This document shows, one piece after another, positions 4,711-55,376 of a stretch of 64,000 nucleotides of DNA. The DNA comes from Elusimicrobium minutum (GTDB taxonomy: Bacteria > Elusimicrobiota > Elusimicrobia > Elusimicrobiales > UBA9959), in NCBI GenBank assembly GCA_020723765.1, contig DYIF01000005.1:713-64712 (forward strand). Reading direction: 5' to 3'. The notes under the pieces were generated by a model that worked only from the letters and a program-made list of their open reading frames with translations, had not been told where the DNA came from and did not search any database. The position numbers and the translations under genes are program-made. Numbering within the stretch: the first letter of the stretch is position 1; every line of letters begins with the position of its first letter.

Positions 4711-5727
4711 TTACGGCCTTCCGCCCATAACAAGCGAAAGTATCGCTTTTACGGTATGAAGCCTGTTCTCCGCCTGATCGAAAACCACGCTCTGAGGCCC
4801 GTCTATGACCGCATCCTCAACCTCCGCGCCTCTATCGGCCGGAAGAGGGTGCATGTATATGGCTTCTTTTCTCGCAAGTTTCATCCTTTCGGCGGTACAT
4901 ACCCAGTCTTTATATTTGTTCAGATACTCCATCCCTATTTTCTTTCTTTCTTCCTCGGGTATGTTTTGCTCGGCCAGGAACTGATGGCATCCCCAGGATT
5001 TGGGATATACCACATGAGCGTCTTTAAAAGCCTCGTCCATATCGTGAATTATTTTAAATTTCGCGCCGGTTTCTTTTGAAAATCTTTCGGCGTCTTCCAC
5101 GGTTCGAGGGATAAGTTTAAATTCTTTCGGATAGGCTAAAGTTACATCGGCGCCAAACCTCGGAAGCAAGGTTATAAGTCCTTGAGGAACCGAAAGAGGC
5201 CTGGCGTAAGCCGGAGCGTAGGTCCATGCTACGGTTACCTTGAGGCCTTTCAAACTATTTGTGGAATACTTTTCCTGTATTGTCATAAGGTCCGCTATCG
5301 ACTGGCAGGGGTGATCCACGTCGCATTGCAAATTCACTACGGGGATATCGGCTTCTTTAGCCACCTCTCTTATGTATTTGTTTCCTATTCCGTAAAAACA
5401 GTTTCTTATGGCTATGCCGTGTCCGTATCTGGAAAGGACTTTCCCGGTGTCTTTCGGAGTTTCTCCGTGAGATATCTGCATCTTATCGGGGGTAAGATCG
5501 TGGGCATGGCCGCCTAACTGGGTCATAGCCGCTTCGGTGGAGTTTCTCGTTCTTGTGGATTGCTCGAAAAACATCATAAAAAGGGTTTTGTCCTGCAAAA
5601 GTCTGTGCTCTTCGCCTAAAGCGAATTTAATTTTAAGATACTTGGAAACCTCCAAAACGGTTTCAAGCTCCTCTTTGGTCCAATCTACCGTCTCTATCCA
5701 GTCTTTTCCTCTTAAAAGTGTTTTCAT
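4711..5727 (-). CDS. carbamoyltransferase of the ATCase/OTCase superfamily, substrate not assigned
   Basis: 338-aa ORF with STRTR, HPCQ, HPLPADRG..E and AENRLH motifs. It has HPLP rather than the OTCase HCLP and no clear SMG motif. Confidence 0.8.
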   Translation of the reverse strand: MKTLLRGKDWIETVDWTKEELETVLEVSKYLKIKFALGEEHRLLQDKTLFMMFFEQSTRTRNSTEAAMTQLGGHAHDLTPDKMQISHGETPKDTGKVLSRYGHGIAIRNCFYGIGNKYIREVAKEADIPVVNLQCDVDHPCQSIADLMTIQEKYSTNSLKGLKVTVAWTYAPAYARPLSVPQGLITLLPRFGADVTLAYPKEFKLIPRTVEDAERFSKETGAKFKIIHDMDEAFKDAHVVYPKSWGCHQFLAEQNIPEEERKKIGMEYLNKYKDWVCTAERMKLARKEAIYMHPLPADRGAEVEDAVIDGPQSVVFDQAENRLHTVKAILSLVMGGRP

Positions 5728-5769
5728 CTATCCTCCTTTTATTTTTAAAAAACGGACTTCTTAAACTTA

Positions 5770-6537
5770 TTATACAAAAAATATTTTTAATGAAAATATG
5801 TTATTTCCTTCGCAAACCGAGATTTTTTTTATCTCGACGTCTTTTTCGAACAAAGGGCTCGATATTACCATGGAATGAACGTCTTGTCTGACTAATACCC
5901 CCCCTTCTCGCTTTATTTCCATTTCTTCGGAGATCCAACTTTTTAAAAACCGCATATCTATACCGGCACCCAAAAAAGACTTAATCTTATCGATATGTTC
6001 TTTGGATTTTTTTTTAATAATGGGCTTAGGAACGGAAACACATATCGATTTTATTCGGTTTTTTAAGGTTTTTTTTATAATGGAAACCGTCGTTTCGTTT
6101 TCAACGACGAAATCGAAATCGGCTTTTTTTTCTTCAAATATTTTTTTAAACATAACATATCTTTTGTATGTTTTGGGGTTTACCGAAATGTCGTCCGAAA
6201 TCCAGGGAACCAAAATTTTAATTTTTTTTATGCCTAAACACAAAGCTCTGGATTTTATAAATTCGAGCATGTCGGACAAGAAAAAACCTCTGTCGTCTTT
6301 AAAAATCTTTCCCCTCTTCCCGCCGAATTTATAGTAACAAACGGGAATCTTCATTAATTTAGAATGAACTTCTATAGTTTTTTTGTCGTAAAGAGAATTA
6401 AAATATTTTTCCCCGTCGGAATGAGGTAAGGGTTCGAAATTAACCAAAAACGGAACTTTATATCCTTTTCTTAAAGCCTTGAAAAGGACATAATGAGAGT
6501 CCTTGCCGCCGCTATAAAACAAAGTCGCAAAGTTCAT
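5770..6537 (-). CDS. PP-loop ATP pyrophosphatase, ATP_bind_4 / MJ0570 (Dph6-like) family, divergent C-terminus
   Basis: The ORF track gives 5770..6564. The probable start is Met10 (6537), giving MNFATLFYSGGKDSHYVLFKALRKGYKVPFLVNFEP with the SGGKDS PP-loop. A clear paralogue lies at 55437..56171. Confidence 0.6.
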   Translation of the reverse strand: MNFATLFYSGGKDSHYVLFKALRKGYKVPFLVNFEPLPHSDGEKYFNSLYDKKTIEVHSKLMKIPVCYYKFGGKRGKIFKDDRGFFLSDMLEFIKSRALCLGIKKIKILVPWISDDISVNPKTYKRYVMFKKIFEEKKADFDFVVENETTVSIIKKTLKNRIKSICVSVPKPIIKKKSKEHIDKIKSFLGAGIDMRFLKSWISEEMEIKREGGVLVRQDVHSMVISSPLFEKDVEIKKISVCEGNNIFSLKIFFV

Positions 6538-6614
6538 ATATGTATTGTATAAAAAATTTGTCAATTTTGTATAATTTATATATGCCGACTTTTGCGTTAT
6601 TAAGGAGGATTAAG

Positions 6615-7139
6615 ATGAAAAAGTTTTTTATGATTATTTCGATATTTTCTTTGGCTTTTTCTTCTTGCGTTAAAAAACAAGTAAAAAAGGATCTTTCGGA
6701 ATCCGAACAGCAGTCGGGATTTAAAACGGAAGCCATATCCACAAAGACTCTTTCCGCCGAAGGTTTAACCGACGAGACCGCGGAAGGGGACGTAAGGAAA
6801 GAAGCTATAATTTCTTTAGACACCATAAACTTCGATTTCGACAAATACGAATTGTCCGAAAACGCCAAGACAACTCTTTCCAAAAACGCCAAAACCATAC
6901 TTGAAAACAAATATACCGTTACCGTAGAAGGTCATTGCGACGAAAGAGGGACAAACCAATACAATCTGTCTTTGGGCCAAAAAAGAGCGAATGTGGTTAA
7001 AGAGTATTACATAAGGTTGGGAGTTCCGGAAAAAAACATAGCCACCATATCTTACGGCGAAGAAAAGCCTTTGTGCTTCGAATCTACCGAGAACTGCTGG
7101 GCTAAAAACAGAAGGGCGGAGACGAAAGTAACAAAATGA
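6615..7139 (+). CDS. pal: peptidoglycan-associated lipoprotein Pal (OmpA-like)
   Basis: The ORF track starts at 6540, but an AAGGAGG Shine-Dalgarno precedes ATG 6615. This gives MKKFFMIISIFSLAFSSC with a lipobox. The OmpA-like C-domain reads FDFDKYEL...GHCDERGTNQYNLSLGQKRA...NRRAE. Confidence 0.85.
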   Translation: MKKFFMIISIFSLAFSSCVKKQVKKDLSESEQQSGFKTEAISTKTLSAEGLTDETAEGDVRKEAIISLDTINFDFDKYELSENAKTTLSKNAKTILENKYTVTVEGHCDERGTNQYNLSLGQKRANVVKEYYIRLGVPEKNIATISYGEEKPLCFESTENCWAKNRRAETKVTK

Positions 7140-7879
7140 GAAAAAATTTAATCGTTATCGGCTCGTTGTTTTTTTCGTCATGCATGGCGACTCAAAAGGA
7201 TATGCTTATACTTCAAAGCCAGATAGACGATTTAAATACAAACATATATACGCTTAAAAAAAATCAAGCGGACCTCTCTCTTAAAATAGAAGATTTAAAC
7301 AGGAATCTAACCGCTTTTTCCGAAAATTCTAAAGATCTCAACATAGAAATAAACAAACTTTCTTCAAAAATAGAAGATATGGGAACCGTTACCGATAAAA
7401 AAATAAATCAATTGGGTAAAGCGGTAAACCAAAAATCGGAAAAAGAAGAGGAGTATTACAGGGAAACCTCGTTTTTTTATAAAGCCTTGTCTTTCTACTC
7501 CTCTCAAAGATACGAGCCGGCGATAGAATCTTTTAAGGAATACATCCTAAAATTTCCGAAAGGGGACAACATAGATCAGGCGTATTTTTACGCCGCGGAA
7601 TCTCTTTTTGAAATTAAAAATTATAAAGAGGCCGCGATATTTTACGCAAAACTGATATCGGGATATCCAAATTTCGCAAAAACCGCATATGTGAGATTGA
7701 AGTACTCCAAGGCTTTATTGGAGTTAAACGACAAAAATAAAATCGACGAGGCGATAACCTATCTTAAGTCCGTGGAAAAAGAATTTCCCAATACCGTAGA
7801 AGCCGTAACCGCGAAAGAAATATTGTCGGAATTAAAAACGCAAAAACCGGCCGGCCAGCTAAAAAATAAAAGAAACTAA
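7136..7879 (+). CDS. cpoB: Tol-Pal system protein CpoB/YbgF-like (coiled coil + TPR)
   Basis: 247 aa. Signal/lipobox LFFSSC, an N-terminal coiled coil, and a TPR-like C-terminal half. ATGA overlap with the pal stop, and it sits between pal and tolB. Confidence 0.65.
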   Translation: MRKNLIVIGSLFFSSCMATQKDMLILQSQIDDLNTNIYTLKKNQADLSLKIEDLNRNLTAFSENSKDLNIEINKLSSKIEDMGTVTDKKINQLGKAVNQKSEKEEEYYRETSFFYKALSFYSSQRYEPAIESFKEYILKFPKGDNIDQAYFYAAESLFEIKNYKEAAIFYAKLISGYPNFAKTAYVRLKYSKALLELNDKNKIDEAITYLKSVEKEFPNTVEAVTAKEILSELKTQKPAGQLKNKRN

Positions 7880-9144
7880 TGGTTCAGTTTTTTATATATC
7901 TATTTTTGTCCGCAAATCTTTATCTTTCCTCTCAAAACACCGAGGTTTATATAGGGATAGAAAAAAATTTTTCCGAAGAAAAAATAATATTGGCTTCCTT
8001 TACTCTCTCTTCCGGCAGTCAAACGACGGAGTCGTTGACTCAAAAATTGAAAGAAATAATAAGAACCGACTTAATGTTTTCGAGATATTTTAAAGTAATA
8101 GAAACGGAAGACGAAATAAAAGCGGAAGAAACGCTTGGTTATCTTTCCAAAACGGCCAGATACACTCTTACCGCCCAAATAAAAGCCGAAGAAAACATAT
8201 CCATAATAACCGCTTTATACGATAACAATCTCAAAGAGCCTATTCTTAAAAAAAGTTATACCTCTTCTTTGGAATCTTTGACGAGAATGGCGCATATGAT
8301 AAGCGACGACATAGTGGAAAAAATTACCGGCAAAAAAGGAATCGCTCACAGCAGAATAACATTTTCAAACGATTCCACGGGATACAAAGAAATATATATG
8401 ATAGACTACGACGGGGAAAACTTATATCAAATGACGAATCACAAAAGCATATCGATAGTCCCCAAATGGTCATCGGACGGAAACAAAATATTCTACACCT
8501 CCTACAGATACGGAAATCCCGACCTTTTCGTAATAGACATGATGGAAGGAAAAATAAAAACTTTTTCAAGATATCAGGGGCTGAATATAGCCGGCGGTTT
8601 TTCCCCGGACGGGAACGAAATGGCTATCACTCTATCGAGAGGAAAGGATCCTTCCATATACATAGTAAATCTCGTTACGAAAGAGGTGAAAAAATTATTG
8701 GATAACTTCGGGATATGCGCTTCCCCCACATACTCGCCGGACGGTAAAGAGATAGCTTTCGTAAGCGACAGGCCCGGAAATCCTCAGTTATACATATATA
8801 ATTTAGAAACGAAGAATTATAGGAAAATAACCAACTTTTACTGGGTAGACTCTCCAAACTGGTCGGAAAACGGAAAATGGATAGTTTTTTCGGGAAGAGA
8901 GACAAAAAGCGAAAGATTAAATATTTTCATTACCGACCCGACGACAAGCATGATACACAGGCTTACGAGAAACGAAGGAGATAACGAAGACCCTTCTTTT
9001 TCTCCGGACTCGAGATTCATAGTTTTTACTTCCACAAGAAACAAAAAAAGACAGATATTCGTAATGGACTTGGACGGCTCGGCCCCGCGTTTATTATCCG
9101 ATAAAATAAAAGGGAACTCCTATACGCCGATGTGGAGCAGATAA
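7879..9144 (+). CDS. tolB: TolB-like periplasmic beta-propeller protein
   Basis: 421 aa with a signal peptide. Repeated propeller-blade motifs: FSPDGNEMAITLSR, YSPDGKEIAFVSDRPGNPQLY, FSPDSRFIVFTS. TAATG overlap with the cpoB stop. Confidence 0.8.
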   Translation: MVQFFIYLFLSANLYLSSQNTEVYIGIEKNFSEEKIILASFTLSSGSQTTESLTQKLKEIIRTDLMFSRYFKVIETEDEIKAEETLGYLSKTARYTLTAQIKAEENISIITALYDNNLKEPILKKSYTSSLESLTRMAHMISDDIVEKITGKKGIAHSRITFSNDSTGYKEIYMIDYDGENLYQMTNHKSISIVPKWSSDGNKIFYTSYRYGNPDLFVIDMMEGKIKTFSRYQGLNIAGGFSPDGNEMAITLSRGKDPSIYIVNLVTKEVKKLLDNFGICASPTYSPDGKEIAFVSDRPGNPQLYIYNLETKNYRKITNFYWVDSPNWSENGKWIVFSGRETKSERLNIFITDPTTSMIHRLTRNEGDNEDPSFSPDSRFIVFTSTRNKKRQIFVMDLDGSAPRLLSDKIKGNSYTPMWSR

Positions 9145-46557: not shown

Positions 46558-49500
46558 TCAAAAACTTCGAATAGTATAAATATTTTCTCCTTTGTCGGGA
46601 TATGAATCGTAAATGTGTTGGAAAACCAATTCGCATTTTTGATGGTATAAATCGTCATTAAAAGATTCGGGCAATTTCTCCAGAACTTCTTCAATACATA
46701 ACTTAACCGATGCTCTTGCCTGTTGTTTTTTTCTCCAGTCTATTACTAATTTTTCCTTTTTTAACTTTTCCAATAATTCTTTTGCGATTTTCTTAACTCT
46801 TAAAATTTCTTTTTGTGTCAGATTGATAGGAGTATTTTTGGTAAGCAAGTCATATATAGCAAGTTCCTCTTCAGTGAGATTTTCCGAAATACTTCTTTTT
46901 TCTTCCTTATTTAGCGATTCTACAAGCTCCAGCAATTTTTTATAATACTCTTCGACATTTACCGAACCCGCGTTATACTCATTAACCAATTCCTGAAACT
47001 TTTCCAGAAAATTTATTCTGCTTTTGTTTAACATATACAAAGCCTGAAGTTTAATTTCTATGGCTTTTTTAACCCTTTCAGCGATAATTATTTTTTTGCC
47101 TTTTTCAAATTCTTTTTTCAATTTATTTATATCAATCTTTGTCAAATCCACAATACTACCGGCGACATATTCTTCAAAGGTTTCTTTTGAATAACGCGTA
47201 TCTACTTTAACTGACCGGTCTAACAAATCCGAAACCTGTTTAATTACATCCGAAATATCTATTTCCGGCGAAATTGAATTTATTTTTTTAGATATCGTGC
47301 CAAGAAGTTTAACTACAGGCTGATATTTGGAAACGAAGGTATCGGGGAGAATTGCTTTATAAGTTCTTTGTATGATTGAATTTTTAAGCGCAAAAGTTTT
47401 TTTTCTCTCATCGTTTCGAAGAATATTTTCCACTGCATTATCTATAAGATTTATGCATTCAAGCTCTTTGGAATTTAAAATTTTCTCAATATCTATATCC
47501 CATTTTGAAAACAAATCTTTTATTTCGTTTATATATTTTTCAAGCTGAGATATAAGTTCAGATTTTTCAACAATCGGTGAATTACTTATCCCTTCTTTGT
47601 CAGTAGTTATATAAATTGAAAGCGCCTGGTTTAATTGATATAAAATTCCTATATAATCCACTATAAGGCCAGCCACTTTGTTTTCACCAAAAACTCTATT
47701 AACTCTGGCTATCGTCTGCATTAAAGTATGGTTTTTCATCGGTTTATCTAAATAAATAGTCGAACAGGACGGCACATCAAACCCGGTCATCCACATTGCG
47801 CAAACAAAAACCAATCTTAAAGGATTATCCGGGTCTTTAAATTTTTCATCCAAAGCTTCTTTATTCATTCTTAAGCGATGAGGCAGGATATCCACTCCTT
47901 TTTTCTTTAAATCTTCAACTTCGTTTTGAGATTGAGAAACCACAACTGCCATATCGGTTTCTTTCATATATTTAATTTTTTGAAATATCTCTTCTCTTTT
48001 CTTATCATCCTGCTCTTTTTTTAAATCTTTTTCCAATTTCTCAATATAATTTAGCCAGTATTTCTTAACTTTATCATACATTTTAACTGCTGTGGCTTTG
48101 TCTATTGCAACTACCATAGCTTTTCCCATAAAACCGCGGTTCATAAAATGAATTACTATGTCTTTAGCTATTTCTTCAAGCCTATCCTCACGAGTAATAA
48201 GCTGATATTCTTTTGAAAATTCCCTTTCAAATTTTCTTTCTTCTTCATCCGTTAATTCCGCTTCTCCGAGGATTTTATAAATATCTTCATTTAGATTTAA
48301 ATTTTTGATATTTAAATGAGGTTTCCTGTTTTCATAATATAAAGGCACCGTCGCCTTATCCTCAATAGCCCGCTTAAAATCATAAATGCTGACATAATCA
48401 CCGAAAACCTCTTTTGTTTTTTCTTCGCCGGCTATTAAAGGCGTTCCTGTAAAAGCCATAAAAGCGGCATTAGGCAAAGCGTTTCTCATATTCATTGCAA
48501 AAATATCATACTGAGTTCTATGAGCTTCGTCCGCTATAACTATTATATCCGAGCGGTCGGAAATTACAGGATGGATTTTTCCTTTTTCAGTCCTAAACTT
48601 TTGTATCGTAGTAAATATAAACCTATGATTTTCGGTTAATAATTTTCTTAAATTTTCAGAGTCTTCGGCCCAGACCTGAGCGCCGGTTATAATACCGCTT
48701 CTAACAAACCGTTTATATGTCTGCTCGTCTAACTCCTTTCTGTCGGTTACTATTACAAATGTCCAGTTCCCAGGTATTTTTCTTAAAATTTTTTGGGAGA
48801 AGAAAATCATCGATTCGGTTTTACCGGAGCCCTGGGTATGCCAGAAAACCCCCAATTGTTTATTTGTTCTATTTTTATACACAGTATTAAAATTTCTTAT
48901 CGCTTTTTCTACCCCTAAGTACTGGTGATTTTTAGCTATTATTTTAATTAAGCCATTCTTTTCTTCCCTGAATATCGAATAATTTTCAATAATATCAAGA
49001 AATCTTTTTCTATCGCAGACCGCTTTTATAATCGTTTCAAGAGAAACAACCCCTTTTTCCCCTTCATCGTTTATTCTTTTCCACTCGGCAAAATGCTCCC
49101 AATCCGAAGAGATGCTTCCAACTCTACTTTCGCTTCCGTTTGAAAGAATAATAATTCCGTTATAATGAAAAATTTGAGGTATGGTATTTTTATAATCCCT
49201 TAAATTATTATCATAAGCTTCCTTGATATTTTTACTAAAAGCTTTTAATTCAATAAATAACAGCGGTATCCCGTTAACAAACCCTACAAGGTCAGCTCTT
49301 CTTGTGTAAATATCGCCGGAAACCCAGAACTGCGATGCTAAAAGAAAATCATTATTTTCTGGATTATCCCAGTCTATTATCTTTAATCTCTCGGAAACCG
49401 ACTCGTTTTTATTATTTAAACACTCTACAACAACGCCATCTTTAATTAATTGATAGACCTCTTTATTGGCATAAGCCATACCCATTAGATTTCTATCGGC

Positions 49501-49743
49501 GATAATTATATTTATAGCTTCGTTTATAAAATCATCCGAAACATTTGGATTAAGTTTTTTAATTGCCGGTTTAAGTCGGGAAACTAAAACTACGTCGCTT
49601 TTTGTCTCGCGACCTAAAAAACTTTTACCCGAATCAAACTCGCCATAACAATCTACAAACTCCCATCCCAAATTTTTAAATAACTCTATCGCAGGCTTTT
49701 CAACCATAGCCGATTCGGAATAGTTATTATTTGGAAGAGACAT
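46558..49743 (-). CDS. hsdR: type I restriction enzyme, R (endonuclease/translocase) subunit
   Basis: The ORF track runs to 49779. The likely start is Met13 (49743), directly after the upstream stop: MSLPNNNYSESAMVEKPAIELFKNLGW. Motifs: WHTQGSGKTES, IADEAHRTQ (DEAH), MQTIARVNR. Confidence 0.9.
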   Translation of the reverse strand: MSLPNNNYSESAMVEKPAIELFKNLGWEFVDCYGEFDSGKSFLGRETKSDVVLVSRLKPAIKKLNPNVSDDFINEAINIIIADRNLMGMAYANKEVYQLIKDGVVVECLNNKNESVSERLKIIDWDNPENNDFLLASQFWVSGDIYTRRADLVGFVNGIPLLFIELKAFSKNIKEAYDNNLRDYKNTIPQIFHYNGIIILSNGSESRVGSISSDWEHFAEWKRINDEGEKGVVSLETIIKAVCDRKRFLDIIENYSIFREEKNGLIKIIAKNHQYLGVEKAIRNFNTVYKNRTNKQLGVFWHTQGSGKTESMIFFSQKILRKIPGNWTFVIVTDRKELDEQTYKRFVRSGIITGAQVWAEDSENLRKLLTENHRFIFTTIQKFRTEKGKIHPVISDRSDIIVIADEAHRTQYDIFAMNMRNALPNAAFMAFTGTPLIAGEEKTKEVFGDYVSIYDFKRAIEDKATVPLYYENRKPHLNIKNLNLNEDIYKILGEAELTDEEERKFEREFSKEYQLITREDRLEEIAKDIVIHFMNRGFMGKAMVVAIDKATAVKMYDKVKKYWLNYIEKLEKDLKKEQDDKKREEIFQKIKYMKETDMAVVVSQSQNEVEDLKKKGVDILPHRLRMNKEALDEKFKDPDNPLRLVFVCAMWMTGFDVPSCSTIYLDKPMKNHTLMQTIARVNRVFGENKVAGLIVDYIGILYQLNQALSIYITTDKEGISNSPIVEKSELISQLEKYINEIKDLFSKWDIDIEKILNSKELECINLIDNAVENILRNDERKKTFALKNSIIQRTYKAILPDTFVSKYQPVVKLLGTISKKINSISPEIDISDVIKQVSDLLDRSVKVDTRYSKETFEEYVAGSIVDLTKIDINKLKKEFEKGKKIIIAERVKKAIEIKLQALYMLNKSRINFLEKFQELVNEYNAGSVNVEEYYKKLLELVESLNKEEKRSISENLTEEELAIYDLLTKNTPINLTQKEILRVKKIAKELLEKLKKEKLVIDWRKKQQARASVKLCIEEVLEKLPESFNDDLYHQKCELVFQHIYDSYPDKGENIYTIRSF

Positions 49744-49745
49744 AA

Positions 49746-51029
49746 TTAAAAATCCTTTTTTAATAATCTTTCTTGCCAATAACTTATAGTTTCTTCACTT
49801 ATTGTATCCCAATTAAAAGCCAAAAATATTTTTCGAGCTATTTCATTTGCCTTTTCCTTCCATGAAGATGTTAAATCAATCATATCTATCTTCATTTCAT
49901 AAGTGAGAGTTTTTTCTAAAGAAAAATAATTACCATGAAAATTAACTTCCGGATTTAAACAAATAAGTTTTCTATTATCGACATTAACTAAAGTTATATT
50001 AATGTTTAAGTATGAATTTCGAGATACTTCTTGATAATATCTTTTGAAAAATAAAAAAAACTCTGTAAGTGAATAAATTACGTTTATAAAATCTAATACT
50101 TGTTTCCCATCTTTTCTAAAAGATTTATCATCTTCCCCAAAAGTAGATACCCAAGCGAATAATCCGCTATTATAAAATCTCCATGCTTCGGTATGATATT
50201 CCCATTTAGCAAAAGATTGTCTTCCATTATTAAAATTAGTAGTATTTTTGTAATCAATATGTGGAAAATCCCAACCTCTTAAATCAACTTTATTTTTTTC
50301 CACTAATTCTTTTATCTTTTTCTGATCTAATCTATTATGAATATAATTCTCTGGATATGCAAAGATTTTCCAATAACCTTTATCTTTAATTATTCCAATC
50401 TTTTCAGTTGCAAATATAGAATACTGTTCAAACTCTAATTTGTATCTCTCTTTTGACTCTTGACTATATGTTAAACTCTTCCCTTCAATCAATTTTTTAA
50501 TGTTTTCCAATAATTCATTACTTTTTCTTCTAATAGCTCTATTTAAAAATTCTCTCATTTGTTCTGAAGAAGATATAACTTCGGTTGTCGCTTTTTCTGT
50601 TCTTATATAAATTTGTCCTTCTTGTAAAATTAATTTGTTATCTTGAGAGTGTAAGTTGTTTTTACAAATAACGGGTAATTCTTTAAATTCAGGCACATCA
50701 ATTATAACAACATATTTTTCATCAATATTAAACTTATAAATAAGACAAGAATATTCTGGGTCCGTATAATTGTGTAATAAATCATTAATTTTAGTTGAGT
50801 CAAAAGATTCAAAATCTTCTTTAGATAGACCTATAAATTCAAAATCTTTATCTCTTACACCAAACACAATCTTTCCACCATCTTGCGTATTAAACATAGC
50901 AATTATGTCTTTTATTACTTGTCCTTTTTCCGATTTTAAGGCATTATCCCAATTGAATTTTTCTTTATAGTCAAGATTTTTACTTTCATTTTTTCTTAAT
51001 AGCAACTCTTTTGCTTCTTTTTCTGTCAT
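49746..51029 (-). CDS. AlbA_2 (Schlafen-like, 'divergent AAA') domain protein with uncharacterised C-terminal domain
   Basis: 427 aa. The N-terminus ESKNLDYKEKF...IKDIIAMFNTQDGGKIVFGVRDKDFEFIGL...VVIIDVPEFKELPVICK...GQIYIRTEKAT fits the AlbA_2 pattern. I did not recognise the C-terminal 250 aa (RGWDFPH, WEYHTEAWRFYNSGLF). Confidence 0.65.
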   Translation of the reverse strand: MTEKEAKELLLRKNESKNLDYKEKFNWDNALKSEKGQVIKDIIAMFNTQDGGKIVFGVRDKDFEFIGLSKEDFESFDSTKINDLLHNYTDPEYSCLIYKFNIDEKYVVIIDVPEFKELPVICKNNLHSQDNKLILQEGQIYIRTEKATTEVISSSEQMREFLNRAIRRKSNELLENIKKLIEGKSLTYSQESKERYKLEFEQYSIFATEKIGIIKDKGYWKIFAYPENYIHNRLDQKKIKELVEKNKVDLRGWDFPHIDYKNTTNFNNGRQSFAKWEYHTEAWRFYNSGLFAWVSTFGEDDKSFRKDGKQVLDFINVIYSLTEFFLFFKRYYQEVSRNSYLNINITLVNVDNRKLICLNPEVNFHGNYFSLEKTLTYEMKIDMIDLTSSWKEKANEIARKIFLAFNWDTISEETISYWQERLLKKDF

Positions 51030-51032
51030 TAT

Positions 51033-52304
51033 TTAAATCTTCTCTTTATCAGTTTCTCTTACTTTAATCTCCAAATCTGAGACATCTAATTCACCGGAAA
51101 TAAGTTTTGGTAACAAAATATCTCGTATTTGACGAAGAATTTTGTTTTGTTTTTGATAAACTAATATTGAATTAATTATTGGTCTTGCTAATTTATCATA
51201 TTCTTCAATTATATTTTCTTTTGGAAATAACCATTTAATTCGTGCTAAACCTTCATTTGTCAAAGACATTTGAGTTGCACCAGTACAAAATATATCTTTT
51301 TGTTTATGAAATTCTTGCGACTTTATTGATATAAAAAGAAAACTTAACCACTTCTCAGATATAGCTTCAAATCCAACAAATCCTGATGACAGGATAATAG
51401 AATCTACTAAATCTAAATTAGGGGTAGAAAACAACAAAACTTTATAAGTATCTTTCATTCTTGCAAACCATACTGAATTTAAAACTGGTTGTTTTTGAGC
51501 ACGACTTGGTTTATTATGATAAGAATATTCAATCCCATCTTTAACAAAATCAATACCTTCTACATCCGCTGTCGCAAAATACTTTTTAGTCCCTTGATAA
51601 GGCAAAATATTTTCATTAACTAATCTTAAATATGGAATTTCTAAAAAAGTTTTCACTTCCCAGCCTTCGGGGATTTTTCCTAATTCGGAATCAACAAATT
51701 TAACTTTCTCATAACCGGGAAATCTAAATTTTACAAACCATTCTTTATAAATGGCATCAGCCATCTGCTCAAGAATTTTAATTCTTTTTGTATTATTTTC
51801 AATCAAATCATCATAAGCCGAAAGAATCGAAGCGATTTTTTGCTGTATTGGATATTTATGGATTTGCAACTCATACTCTTCAAAAAATTTTTTATTATAT
51901 ATTGCTTTGCCTGAACCAGTCCCCATAGCTATTGATTTGATTTTAGGTGTTTCATATATAAGACGATAATACACATATTCAGGAACATATTTTTTCTGAT
52001 TAACAATAATGGCATTTATTTGCTGATTAGTAAAACTATAAGTTTTAGTCATGCAAATTTTCCCTATAGTAGAACCAATACACACATAACAAACTGTTTT
52101 TGGCGGAAGAATTTTGTTTTTCTGACTAAGATAACCTAGTTTAGAGAGACCGCGTTCTGTATTTTGAATAAAATAAAAATCATAAGATAAAATATCTGTA
52201 GGAGTAATAAAAGGATAGTCATTTCCAAACAATTCAGGCTTTTTTGTGGATGGAGTTTTACCTGTAATGATTTCTCCCAAATCTTTTATTTTAATAGTTT
52301 GCAT
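51033..52304 (-). CDS. hsdS: type I restriction enzyme, S (specificity) subunit
   Basis: 423 aa. Two target-recognition halves separated by conserved helices: QQKIASILSAYDDLIENNTKRIKILEQMADAIYKEWFVKFRFPG and C-terminal QNKILRQIRDILLPKLISGEL. Confidence 0.85.
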   Translation of the reverse strand: MQTIKIKDLGEIITGKTPSTKKPELFGNDYPFITPTDILSYDFYFIQNTERGLSKLGYLSQKNKILPPKTVCYVCIGSTIGKICMTKTYSFTNQQINAIIVNQKKYVPEYVYYRLIYETPKIKSIAMGTGSGKAIYNKKFFEEYELQIHKYPIQQKIASILSAYDDLIENNTKRIKILEQMADAIYKEWFVKFRFPGYEKVKFVDSELGKIPEGWEVKTFLEIPYLRLVNENILPYQGTKKYFATADVEGIDFVKDGIEYSYHNKPSRAQKQPVLNSVWFARMKDTYKVLLFSTPNLDLVDSIILSSGFVGFEAISEKWLSFLFISIKSQEFHKQKDIFCTGATQMSLTNEGLARIKWLFPKENIIEEYDKLARPIINSILVYQKQNKILRQIRDILLPKLISGELDVSDLEIKVRETDKEKI

Positions 52305-52315
52305 AATTTAACAAT

Positions 52316-52810
52316 TTATTTACATTTATTTCTAATTTCTATTGCTTCTTCTACCCACGATTCAATATTATTTCTAATATAGTTATATACGTCCTTACTA
52401 TCATAATAAGGTGGATCATAAGTTTTTACTATGTATGATAACAATTTCCCATTAAGTTCAAAATTGTCAAAAGGATTCTTCCCTTTCAAACCTTGATTCC
52501 CATCCTTATCTTTTAAATTATGGATATATATTCCAAATAAACCTTTACCATTATTCCAAGATTTTTCAATCTCATAATTAATCCATTTTCTACCTGCAGT
52601 ATTTGTTCCTATAAGGACCACAGTGCAAGATTTATCTTTCAATTGCTCATCAATCCAATTTTCTATTGCTCGGTCTCCACCTCTTATGATTTGTTCCCAA
52701 TCATTATCAGACACTGGTTGGTTTCCTTCAATTATTCCTATATTTCTAATTTGCGATGCACGCCAGTTGTCCGCTTTATAATGAAAACTAAAAAATACCT
52801 TTCTTGCCAT
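52316..52810 (-). CDS. ThsB-like TIR-like domain protein (DUF1863 / MTH538 family)
   Basis: 164 aa. KVFFSFHYKADNWRASQIRN, SCTVVLIGTNTAGRKWINYEIEKS (conserved Glu, E80), GIYIHNLKDKDGNQGLKGKNPFD. From memory this pattern matches Thoeris ThsB / PF08937 proteins. Confidence 0.7.
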   Translation of the reverse strand: MARKVFFSFHYKADNWRASQIRNIGIIEGNQPVSDNDWEQIIRGGDRAIENWIDEQLKDKSCTVVLIGTNTAGRKWINYEIEKSWNNGKGLFGIYIHNLKDKDGNQGLKGKNPFDNFELNGKLLSYIVKTYDPPYYDSKDVYNYIRNNIESWVEEAIEIRNKCK

Positions 52811-52811
52811 T

Positions 52812-53213
52812 TTATTTTCCTCCTAATATTCTAATCACAACTACTACTAAAAGCATTGTCCCATAAAAAGGCAATAGAGTTTTTGAAAAAATAACTTTAG
52901 TCAAACATTCCATTTCATCTTTTCTAAGAAGTGATTTTGTATCTAAACAAAAATCTACTTTTTCTAATTGTCTTGCCTTATCATAAAATTTTCGATATTC
53001 TCTTTCTATTTTTAAAAAATACCCATCTAAAATCCAAAAAACTATTATTGGTAAAAAAGCCACATTAACAAATGCTATATTTGAATCTTTAGCAGACAAA
53101 GCAAACAAAGCAGAAACTAAAATTGCAGTCCATTCTTTTAAAAGAAAAGAATTATTAGCCATACGACTGATAATATTTTGAATCATTTCTAAATATCTTA
53201 TTTTATCTTCCAT
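52812..53213 (-). CDS. small three-helix membrane protein, candidate effector (SLATT-like topology, hypothesis)
   Basis: The ORF track runs to 53249 from a TTG. An AGAGGT SD precedes ATG Met13 (53213): MEDKIRYLEMIQNIISRMANNSF. This amphipathic helix is followed by TM helices WTAILVSALFALSA and VAFLPIIVFWILDGYFL, a charged helix KIEREYRKFYDKARQ, and a C-terminal TM LLPFYGTMLLVVVVIRIL. Confidence 0.55.
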   Translation of the reverse strand: MEDKIRYLEMIQNIISRMANNSFLLKEWTAILVSALFALSAKDSNIAFVNVAFLPIIVFWILDGYFLKIEREYRKFYDKARQLEKVDFCLDTKSLLRKDEMECLTKVIFSKTLLPFYGTMLLVVVVIRILGGK

Positions 53214-53220
53214 ATTACCT

Positions 53221-53802
53221 CTAATGTTTATAAGGTTTTCTCCCTTCAAGCCAACTATTGAAACTTACATATATATCGACATCATCATGAATCCATAATG
53301 TCATTTTACCTGAACCTTCAATCCGATCTTTTGTGACATAAGGATAAAGTCCTAAATATTCCTGTCCCTTATATTCATCGGTTATTGATGATGACTGGGA
53401 AATGGGTAGTATTGCAACTTTTCCTTTTAAAGCATCAAAATAACCAAGTTCCCATGACATCCACTTTGAATTTGGTGAATTTTCAGATGTAACAAAAAAC
53501 AAACTCTTACAACACTTCATTCTTTTGCGAATAATTTCCGCAGTCTCTTTATTGACTTTTCCTCGATTTAATTGCTTATCTTCTATCCAATCAACATAAG
53601 TTGAAAAACCCATATTTTCAATTATAGTTTTTACTCCTAAAATTTCTTCAGCATCGGTATAACTATGTGAAATAAAAATATCATAGGTTTCGCCTTCAGA
53701 AAATGATAACGATGCTTTTTTTAGAATACCAATCGTATTTTCATGTAATAAGCAATATTCTTTTCTTACTTCTTTTATTTCCGCTTTTGTAAATAAAGCC
53801 AT
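53221..53802 (-). CDS. TIR-domain protein
   Basis: 193 aa. YDIFISHSYTDAEE (beta-A/BB-loop context), CCKSLFFVTSENSPNSKWMSWELGYFD (conserved Glu, E118). About 38-aa N-terminal extension. No other domain. Confidence 0.75.
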   Translation of the reverse strand: MALFTKAEIKEVRKEYCLLHENTIGILKKASLSFSEGETYDIFISHSYTDAEEILGVKTIIENMGFSTYVDWIEDKQLNRGKVNKETAEIIRKRMKCCKSLFFVTSENSPNSKWMSWELGYFDALKGKVAILPISQSSSITDEYKGQEYLGLYPYVTKDRIEGSGKMTLWIHDDVDIYVSFNSWLEGRKPYKH

Positions 53803-53816
53803 TTTACTTTACCTTC

Positions 53817-55376
53817 TCATCTTTTAGTTTTAAGTATTTTTGAAATATTTGTTGATATTTTTTCTTCTAATTCTTTAGCTTCCGCGTTTAGTTTTTCTAA
53901 TTCATCGTTTAATTCTTTAATTTTTTCTTTAAAATCAAAATCTTCCTCATCTTTGTCGGCAACTCCCACATATCTTCCGGGATTTAAACTCCATCCCTGC
54001 TTTTCTATCTCTTTTATATCGGCTACTTTGCAAAGCCCCAACACATCCCTATATTTAGATTCTGGAAAGTTTTCATTTAAGATTTTCTCGCTTCCATATC
54101 TATTTTCCGGTTTTTCTTCTCTATAGAGTTTTACGATATTTGATATAAATTCTATCTGCTCGGGGGTAAATTCCCTGTGGGCTCTGTCAATCTGGTTATA
54201 TATGTTTCTTGCATCTATAAATAATACTTTATCCCTTCTTTTTGTGTTTATTTTTGATTTATCAAAAAACCATAACGTACAGGGAAGAGTAACGGTATAA
54301 AAAAAGTTTGAACTTATTGCTATCATAACATCCACTACTCCGCTTTCAATAATCTTTTTTCTTATCTCCATCTCGCTTGCTCTTGCGTCGCTTGCGGAGT
54401 TTGCCATAACAAAACCAGCTCTTCCATTTTTATTTAGAGCGCTATAAAACAATTGAATCCATATATAATTGCCGTTATCTACGGAAGGCATGCCAAAAGG
54501 AAACCTTTTAACATCGCTTTTTATTCTTTCTTTGTCTATTCCGTTTACATTAAACGGTGGATTTGCCATCACAAAATCGAATTTTCCAACCATGTCATGC
54601 AAATCTTCATAATAAGAATTACCCTGAAGAATATCCCCTGAAAGACCATGAACCGCCAAATTCATTTTACAAAGATTAACAGTTTCGCTTGTTTTCTCAA
54701 CTCCATAAACACTTATTTCATCAACCGCTCTTTTTTTATGCTCTTCTACAAATTCGGCACTTTGAACAAACATACCGCCGGACCCGCATGCCGGGTCAAA
54801 TATTTTTCCATGAAACGGTTCAATTATTGAAACTATTAATTTAACAAGACAGGTAGGGGTGAAAAACTCGCCGCCATGCTGACCTTCTTTTATTGCAAAT
54901 TGTCCTAAAAAATATTCGTAAATTTTACCGAAAGCATCACCTTCTATATCGTCCGGTATGGAAGACATCAATTTTAACAATTCTATAAGTAAAGATTTTT
55001 CAAATCTGTTATAAGATTTAGGAAGAATACCTTTAAGGTCCTCATTTTCATTTTCAATAGCTTTCATAGCCTCGTTTATGGCTTTTCCTATATCGGCACT
55101 TTCAGGTAATTTTAATAAGTATGAAAATCTTGCATTCTCAGGCAAATACATAACTCCAGCTGCTTGGAAATCTGTTTTTCCTATTTTTCTTCTTAAATTT
55201 GTTTTTTGGGAAAATATTTTATCTTGTTTTGTAAATTTATAGTCGGCATACTTTAAAAATATAAGACCCAAAACCGGGACGGAATACTCGGAAGATTTTA
55301 AATCGGAATTTGCCCTTAATTTATCCGCGATATTCCATAATCTATTCTCAAGTTCGGAAAGCGTTTCTTTCGTCAT
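53817..55376 (-). CDS. hsdM: type I restriction enzyme, M (N6-adenine methyltransferase) subunit
   Basis: 519 aa. HsdM_N ([36 protein letters not shown]), SAM motif [12 protein letters not shown], catalytic MANPPFN. Confidence 0.95.

Follow-up and report, generated by a model that had tools for sequence, protein, structure and literature searches.

According to our analysis, the gene at positions 52812–53213 of the minus strand of the window is likely to encode a ThsF-type effector of type V Thoeris, flanked by two ThsB sensor/signal-synthase genes. The window is the whole stretch of 64,000 nucleotides that was analysed, taken from contig DYIF01000005.1 of an Elusimicrobium minutum assembly (GCA_020723765.1). 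A preliminary description of this DNA had proposed a small membrane effector that works with its neighbouring TIR genes, and this proposal is supported by the homology of the product to an experimentally validated system; by analogy with that system, the protein probably acts on the membrane. The family is already known: PADLOC described it by computation in 2023, and a preprint of December 2025 characterised it by experiment. The cassette consists of the following genes.

52812–53213, minus strand: thsF-like gene for a 133-amino-acid (aa) effector with three transmembrane (TM) segments, PADLOC PDC-M50A family (open reading frame and homology)
53221–53802, minus strand: upstream TIR gene, ThsB paralogue 1 (TIR1), 193 aa (PADLOC ThsB PDLC00422, 5e-63; Pfam ThsB_TIR, 1e-5)
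52316–52810, minus strand: downstream TIR gene, ThsB paralogue 2 (TIR2), 164 aa, PDC-M50B type (Pfam ThsB_TIR, 5e-28; PADLOC ThsB PDLC00433, 5.5e-76; PDC-M50B, 1.3e-67)

Homology to the ThsF Effector of Type V Thoeris

The window protein matched the PADLOC model PDC-M50A (PDLC04686) over its full length (E 6.2e-44), and PADLOC pairs it with the adjacent downstream TIR (PDLC04688, 1.3e-67) as PDC-M50A/B. PDC-M50 is a two-gene computational phage defence candidate of PADLOC-DB v2.0.0 (2023), and our literature search found no publication describing it. The Pfam scan of the window protein gave no match at E≤1, and the NCBIfam scan gave nothing meaningful.

Recently, 29 putative Thoeris types were defined by the Sorek laboratory (Yirmiya et al., bioRxiv, December 2025; 10.64898/2025.12.03.692087). 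The effector of type V, ThsF, is a membrane-targeting protein with three TM segments, and the type was validated in Bacillus thuringiensis DAR 81934 and Bacillus sp. 1NLA3E (Yirmiya et al., 2025). The B. thuringiensis system defends against phages, and its TIR makes 3'cADPR, a form of cyclic ADP-ribose (cADPR), upon infection. Added 3'cADPR is toxic to cells carrying this system while 2'cADPR and cADPR are not, and the 3'cADPR sponge Tad1 abolishes the defence (Yirmiya et al., 2025). The AlphaFold 3 (AF3) model of ThsF in the same work is a ring-shaped, channel-like homo-heptamer with positively charged pockets between the protomers.

The link between the window protein and ThsF was made via the co-occurrence of TIR and TM genes on plasmids in tblastn searches and, finally, via the exact ThsB. 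The validated ThsB sequence of B. thuringiensis DAR 81934 was taken from Table S1 of the preprint and located at 100% identity (P0271). Next to it, on the same strand, lies a gene for a 141-aa protein with three hydrophobic segments (locus L088, 3773–4198), whereas the neighbour on the other side has none; the position of this gene agrees with Table S2, in which the IMG gene numbers are consecutive. Over 128 residues, the window protein and the 141-aa protein share 45% identity (E 5e-36), and hhalign of the family alignment A1 against the latter gave a probability of 100% (E 1e-47). The identity and the profile match together lead us to conclude that the window protein is a ThsF homologue. It also has the properties by which ThsF is recognised, namely three TM segments within about 130–140 aa (AlphaFold2 and hydropathy) and an operon with a ThsB-type TIR gene, here on both sides.

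The plasmid data agree with this assignment: tblastn matches of the window protein directly adjoin those of type V ThsBs on Terribacillus pT1, Klebsiella pWP3-S18-ESBL-05_2 and Priestia pPmC-129-6. In the Priestia pair, where the TIR precedes the ThsF homologue, the effector is 43% identical to window ThsF and the TIR is 46% identical to TIR1. Plasmid relatives of B. thuringiensis ThsB were also tried as a route to a DUF2270 seed and were rejected, as they led to type I or type II-like contexts, plus an effector gene truncated by an insertion sequence (IS). Weak matches to DUF3278 in 16 of 40 family members (best E 4e-4), all under the gathering score, were taken as noise from TM composition.

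Two further observations concern the validated system and its relatives. B. thuringiensis ThsF has a weak full-length match to the octameric membrane protein domain 8xMP (E 0.012), and in P0193 a ThsF module is fused behind this domain (1.6e-27); a remote relationship between ThsF and 8xMP is possible, and a literature search on '8xMP' gave irrelevant results only. The validated type V Thoeris adjoins genes for a UvrD-type helicase and an OLD/TOPRIM ATPase (L088, 4454–6759); this pair is Gabija-like, so the locus is a defence island.

Gene Position and Translational Coupling

The 133-aa open reading frame (ORF) at 52812–53213 was confirmed on the minus strand, with its ATG at 53213–53211 and its TAA at 52814–52812; the product begins with MEDKIRYLEMIQNIISRMANNSF and ends with RILGGK. 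An alternative TTG start at 53249 would give a 145-aa version overlapping the upstream TIR gene. In alignment A1 the homologues begin at the ME.K position, which supports the ATG at 53213. The publicly deposited call of the gene (P0001) has 116 aa, starting at Met18, and loses the helix that bears the invariant residues K4, L8, Q12 and R17; the deposited start is probably a mis-annotation.

The translation signals of the cassette are listed below.

53218–53221, minus strand: GAGG Shine-Dalgarno sequence of thsF (read from the sequence as CAT TAG AGG TAAT ATG)
52819–52824, minus strand: AGGAGG Shine-Dalgarno sequence of the downstream TIR gene (read from the sequence as TTAGGAGGAAAATAAAATG)

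The GAGG (53221–53218) has one base in common with the upstream TIR gene, the final G of its TAG stop, and stands 4 nt ahead of the thsF ATG. The AGGAGG lies close to the 3' end of thsF, within its L-G-G codons, and a single nucleotide lies between the thsF TAA and the start codon (ATG, 52810–52808) of the downstream ThsB-like gene. Both Shine-Dalgarno overlaps can thus be read directly from the sequence; the preliminary description had placed the site of thsF a few nucleotides after the TIR stop and that of the downstream gene within the last thsF codons. The gaps inside the cassette measure 7 nt and 1 nt, and the TIR, thsF and TIR genes are all translationally coupled.

A word-indexed search revealed 379 homologues of window ThsF, nearly all of 130–140 aa. 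An exhaustive profile search over clusters at 50% identity gave 5,337 clusters with E≤0.001, 3,844 of them with E≤1e-10. The many homologues and the 17 invariant columns described below mean that thsF is not a chance ORF.

Predicted Structure and Comparison With SLATT Proteins

An AlphaFold2 monomer model, built from an alignment of 40 sequences, had a mean pLDDT of 82 and a pTM of 0.67. In the model, an N-terminal amphipathic helix continues into TM1 (predicted helix 2–43), TM2 continues into the charged KIEREYRKFYDKARQ helix (47–82), a segment of lower confidence with two short helices follows (83–111), and TM3 forms the last helix (113–132). A Kyte-Doolittle scan recovers the hydrophobic stretches. 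The layout proposed from the sequence, with an amphipathic N-terminal helix, a TM pair, a charged helix and a C-terminal TM, was thereby confirmed. The third TM and the small size, which had been considered unusual, are both the norm of the family, and ThsF has been described as a three-TM protein.

In alignment A1, 17 columns are invariant: K4, L8, Q12, R17, F23, W28, A35, L36, F59, W60, D63, F66, R74, Y77, F88, S110 and T112. Among them, K4, R17, R74 and Y77 fall in the predicted cytoplasmic helices, in which K26 and R81 are nearly invariant; 11 K/R and 9 D/E residues lie between TM2 and TM3. A sequence-profile search of the PDB with window ThsF gave no match at E≤10, and a Foldseek search against the PDB gave none at E≤0.001, returning only generic helical bundles.

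The preliminary description had placed the protein near the SLATT-type effectors, and this assignment did not stand. None of the Pfam profiles SLATT_1-6 and DUF4231 matched the window protein (E≤1) or any of 40 family members, including 39 homologues (E≤10). As a comparison set we used a TIR-linked SLATT protein of 145 aa from a Staphylococcus chromogenes plasmid, encoded just upstream of a type VII-like TIR; as a positive control, it matched DUF4231 (1e-23) and SLATT_1 (2e-10). The hhalign probability of alignment A1 was 0.1% against this Staphylococcus protein and 1.1% against a 33-sequence alignment of its DUF4231/SLATT_1 family, the latter over 14 columns of TM1 only. The conserved motifs also differ, being NSFLLKGW and FWxLDGYF...YRKxYD in ThsF versus QINWYDxKS and ENWIxYRTTCE in the SLATT set.

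Against these profile and motif results, and the third TM helix that the ThsF family keeps, stand the similar layout of a soluble N-terminal helix, a TM hairpin and a charged helix, the SLATT/DUF4231 proteins of similar size (145 aa) that adjoin TIR genes, for example in type VII Thoeris, and the existence of SLOG-domain fusions in the ThsF family. Association with SMODS, SLOG or TIR genes, as is typical of SLATT proteins, was indeed found (TIR adjacency, SLOG fusions and a SLOG neighbour), but it is common to many unrelated effectors. We therefore regard it as extremely unlikely that the window protein is a divergent effector of the SLATT (SMODS/SLOG-associating 2TM) family. The resemblance of the layouts is real but is an analogy, and homology is undetectable.

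Flanking TIR Genes

Both TIR proteins have counterparts in Table S1 of the preprint and fall in TIR groups assigned there to type V: TIR1 is 58% identical to a 'DUF2270 - Type V' TIR of cluster 2612357774, and TIR2 is 65% identical to one of cluster 2661146773. The glutamate of the W-E-L-G-Y-F motif of TIR1 (E118) is invariant in alignment A2, and E80, the glutamate in the YEIE motif of TIR2, is matched in alignment A3 by the RYEIMKS segment of B. cereus ThsB. Judging from these alignments, the putative catalytic glutamates of both window TIRs are conserved.

Genomic Linkage Across the ThsF Family

The occurrence of TIR genes beside ThsF homologues was surveyed in one genome per GTDB species. 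The scan gave 409 encoding loci, 80 of which were fetched and 79 of which were non-redundant; TIRs were sought among the called ORFs with TIR seeds and iterated hidden Markov models, and adjacency was defined as a position within 150 bp on the same strand. The fetched loci span Chloroflexota, Cyanobacteria, Bacteroidota, Planctomycetota, Pseudomonadota, Nitrospirota, candidate phyla radiation (CPR) groups and archaea. An adjacent same-strand TIR was found in 65 of the 79 loci: downstream in 49 (mostly of the TIR2 type), upstream in 5 and on both sides, as in the window, in 11. No housekeeping context, which had been set beforehand as grounds for refutation, was seen among the examined loci of the family.

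The 14 loci that lack an adjacent TIR include the following cases. A stand-alone SLOG gene (5433–6131, LD_cluster3, 2.9e-17) lies beside the ThsF homologue of L028, and a DUF4062-STAND-TPR gene (5428–8178) beside that of L063. In L017 a SEFIR/TIR gene is found 1.4 kb from the ThsF homologue, and in L080 a DUF1599 'nucleotide modification associated' gene (5407–5679) separates ThsF from the TIR. The upstream genes of L003 (3952–4971, 339 aa) and L009 (4020–4976, 318 aa) carry TIR-like FISH/FLSF motifs ('FISHKW', 'YDYFLSF') without a Pfam match, and may be unrecognised signal-generating partners. Three loci from cyanobacterial metagenome-assembled genomes (MAGs; L025, L030 and L046) have no recognisable TIR or other partner. 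In addition, the ThsF module is fused to an N-terminal SLOG domain in P0136 (LD_cluster2, 1.7e-15), and P0133 has a similar N-terminus; these fusions tie the module to nucleotide-signal sensing.

Pairs of TIR and ThsF genes are also found on plasmids of Priestia, Terribacillus and Klebsiella. Enterobacterial plasmids, most of them conjugative, commonly carry such pairs (40 Klebsiella and 36 Escherichia records). Their neighbours are a DNA methylase gene and a DUF1380 gene. Two of the Klebsiella plasmid loci are L084 (3270–3539) and L087 (2501–2911), and on one plasmid an IS3 insertion shortens the ThsF gene to 89 aa.

Proposed Mechanism and Activating Signal

By extension from validated Thoeris systems, phage infection would activate one or both TIRs, which would turn nicotinamide adenine dinucleotide (NAD+) into a cADPR-type signal; this is 3'cADPR in B. 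thuringiensis and may be the same at the window locus. ThsF lacks a separate sensor domain and would bind the signal between protomers, putatively through K4, R17, K26, R74, Y77 and R81. The homo-oligomeric ring would then open or disrupt the membrane, and the infection would be aborted. The two ThsBs may broaden phage recognition while feeding one effector.

Several points weigh against the assignment to type V Thoeris and the mechanism derived from it. The signal, the oligomeric state and pore formation are carried over by analogy, the sources being a homologue with 45% identity and the AF3 models of the preprint. The most frequent TIR partner of the ThsF family (TIR2/PDC-M50B type) belongs to another clade than the B. 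thuringiensis TIR, and 14 of the 79 loci have no recognisable adjacent TIR. DUF2270 (PF10028), the label used for ThsF in the preprint, gave no hmmscan match for the window protein (E≤1), nor for validated B. thuringiensis ThsF (E≤10) or three plasmid homologues, and it matched 6 of 40 family members with a best E of 0.0087. Furthermore, 3'cADPR did not make the type V system of Bacillus sp. 1NLA3E toxic, and a Vibrio type V system gave no defence in Escherichia coli (Yirmiya et al., 2025); the activating signal may differ between family members. As to DUF2270, the validated ThsF fails the same test, so we consider this label weak or remote and no discriminating criterion; since hmmscan does not recover it, membership in ThsF rests on direct homology.

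The ligand at the window locus may likewise differ, because 1NLA3E is not triggered by 3'cADPR and the TIR2 clade also occurs in type XI. In such a case, a ThsF-type effector would open in response to a signal different from 3'cADPR, be it His-ADPR, a further isomer of cADPR or an unknown compound, or would need a second input. TIR1 falls in the TIR group of the 1NLA3E system, TIR2 shares 45% identity with a TIR of type XI, and two different TIR clades flank thsF in the window, all of which favour this possibility. For the TIRs of types X and XI, no known TIR-derived molecule was found (Yirmiya et al., 2025). However, 3'cADPR is the ligand of the sole family member for which one has been defined, the 1NLA3E TIR also makes 3'cADPR on infection (Yirmiya et al., 2025), and the strong conservation of the cytoplasmic helices throughout the family suggests a common ligand. 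Gating by another signal is therefore a tentative possibility that we judge somewhat unlikely.

The small size of ThsF and its lack of a recognisable ligand-binding or enzymatic domain could alternatively fit a role in anchoring the TIRs to the membrane or in holding them in check, where the TIRs themselves would act by NAD+ depletion. The tight translational coupling with both TIRs would suit a stoichiometric complex, and some bacterial TIRs are NAD+-depleting effectors (Yirmiya et al., 2025). In the homologous system, however, added 3'cADPR is toxic to cells carrying the system and the sponge abolishes defence, which speaks for a signal-to-effector logic. The SLOG-ThsF fusions lack a TIR in the same protein, and one homologue has a stand-alone SLOG neighbour. 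The TIR partners come from several unrelated clades, and this diversity is easier to reconcile with a diffusible signal than with a specific protein-protein anchor. This makes an anchoring role very unlikely, and we retain the reading of ThsF as a signal-activated membrane effector.

Type I Restriction–Modification Setting of the Cassette

In the window, the cassette lies inside a type I restriction–modification (R-M) operon, whose other genes are the following.

53817–55376, minus strand: hsdM, type I R-M methylase, first of the co-directional block (Pfam N6_Mtase, 7e-84; HsdM_N, 3e-21)
51033–52304, minus strand: hsdS, type I specificity subunit, 11 nt past the downstream TIR gene (Pfam Methylase_S, 1e-20)
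49746–51029, minus strand: gene with a Schlafen (SLFN)/AlbA_2 domain, between hsdS and hsdR (Pfam SLFN_AlbA_2, 4e-18)
46558–49779, minus strand: hsdR, type I restriction subunit, last of the block (ORF; HSDR_N, ResIII, SWI2_SNF2 and T1RH-like_C found on the same gene in L093, where it is called with 1061 aa)

The block thus comprises seven co-directional genes with very small gaps in the order hsdM-TIR-thsF-TIR-hsdS-SLFN-hsdR. The cassette TIR-ThsF-TIR-hsdS, with hsdM before it and a variable gene and hsdR after it, recurs in two related metagenomic loci, an Elusimicrobiales MAG (L090) and a JGI metagenome contig (L091), whose ThsF proteins are 78% and 72% identical to that of the window, respectively. 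The genes of the recurring block are separated by 1–14 nt. In both loci a RhuM/Fic gene replaces the SLFN gene (L090, 9130–10125; L091, 5441–6436), and upstream there are additional small genes or a GmrSD gene. Within the type I R-M operon, the site between hsdS and hsdR seems to be a place for variable cargo.

In none of the 80 other ThsF loci do hsd genes occur within 5 kb, which makes the embedding in an R-M operon specific to this clade and no trait of the family. The cassette and the R-M operon are probably co-transcribed and would form a compact defence island with two layers. Scans of 46–56 kb for promoters and terminators gave results at chance level, which were uninformative on the operon boundaries. 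The GC content is 26–29% across 50–54 kb, compared to 31–45% in the flanks, consistent with horizontally acquired cargo.

A known example of an abortive-infection gene embedded in a type I R-M operon is the anticodon nuclease PrrC of EcoprrI. PrrC is physically restrained by the R-M enzyme and is freed by a phage anti-restriction peptide. By a similar guard logic, the window cassette might be functionally wired to the R-M system as a back-up that fires when a phage escapes or inhibits restriction. Such wiring could take the form of obligatory co-transcription from the hsdM promoter, or one ThsB could sense R-M failure or anti-restriction proteins. The recurrence of the R-M-embedded block, with gaps of 1–14 nt, in three loci with ThsF proteins 72–78% identical to that of the window supports this idea. 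A literature search on Thoeris together with hsdS/hsdM found nothing specific, and on the whole we consider a guard function doubtful.

Implications and Comparison With Known Systems

Our analysis gives a named and experimentally anchored function to a family of 'hypothetical proteins' that comprises over 5,000 clusters (50% identity) and reaches many bacterial phyla, archaea and the conjugative plasmids of enterobacteria. It shows that the PADLOC candidate PDC-M50 and type V Thoeris have their effector family in common. As DUF2270 is not recovered by a standard hmmscan, routine annotation misses these genes, which are called hypothetical. With two different ThsBs around one effector in an R-M operon, the compact arrangement lends itself to asking if several TIR sensors act on a single effector, and if Thoeris is regulated together with restriction.

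Among the systems compared, PrrC/EcoprrI resembles the window cassette as a suicide-type module co-oriented with, and placed between, hsd genes; it differs in that PrrC is tied to the R-M enzyme, a tie that is hypothetical for the window cassette. The SLATT/DUF4231 proteins (ThsH of type VII Thoeris and the 2TM effectors of CBASS, the cyclic-oligonucleotide-based antiphage signalling systems) are, like ThsF, small membrane effectors of nucleotide-signalling defence that adjoin TIR genes and presumably act by oligomeric membrane disruption, but they have two TM helices instead of the three of the ThsF family and no detectable sequence or profile similarity to it. The validated type VII systems use canonical cADPR as the signal (Yirmiya et al., 2025). 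The type II Thoeris effector with TM segments and a Macro domain (ThsC in the new nomenclature) is also a membrane effector activated by a TIR signal (Yirmiya et al., 2025); its Macro domain binds His-ADPR, whereas ThsF has no globular sensor domain, and the PADLOC models of ThsA and of the type II effector gave no match to window ThsF.

The closest likeness is to PDC-M50 and type V Thoeris. As in PDC-M50, a full-length PDC-M50A protein and a PDC-M50B protein are encoded by adjacent genes, but the window has a second, upstream ThsB of another clade. Like the ThsF of B. thuringiensis type V, the window protein has about 135 aa and three TM segments, aligns over its full length and adjoins ThsB-type TIRs. 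In contrast to type V as published, the window effector is flanked by two ThsBs of different clades, the cassette lies within a type I R-M operon, and the host is an uncultured, low-GC bacterium, with an Elusimicrobiales MAG (78% identity) as the nearest relative that bears a name. The window locus is an R-M-embedded, two-ThsB arrangement and represents a minor variant.

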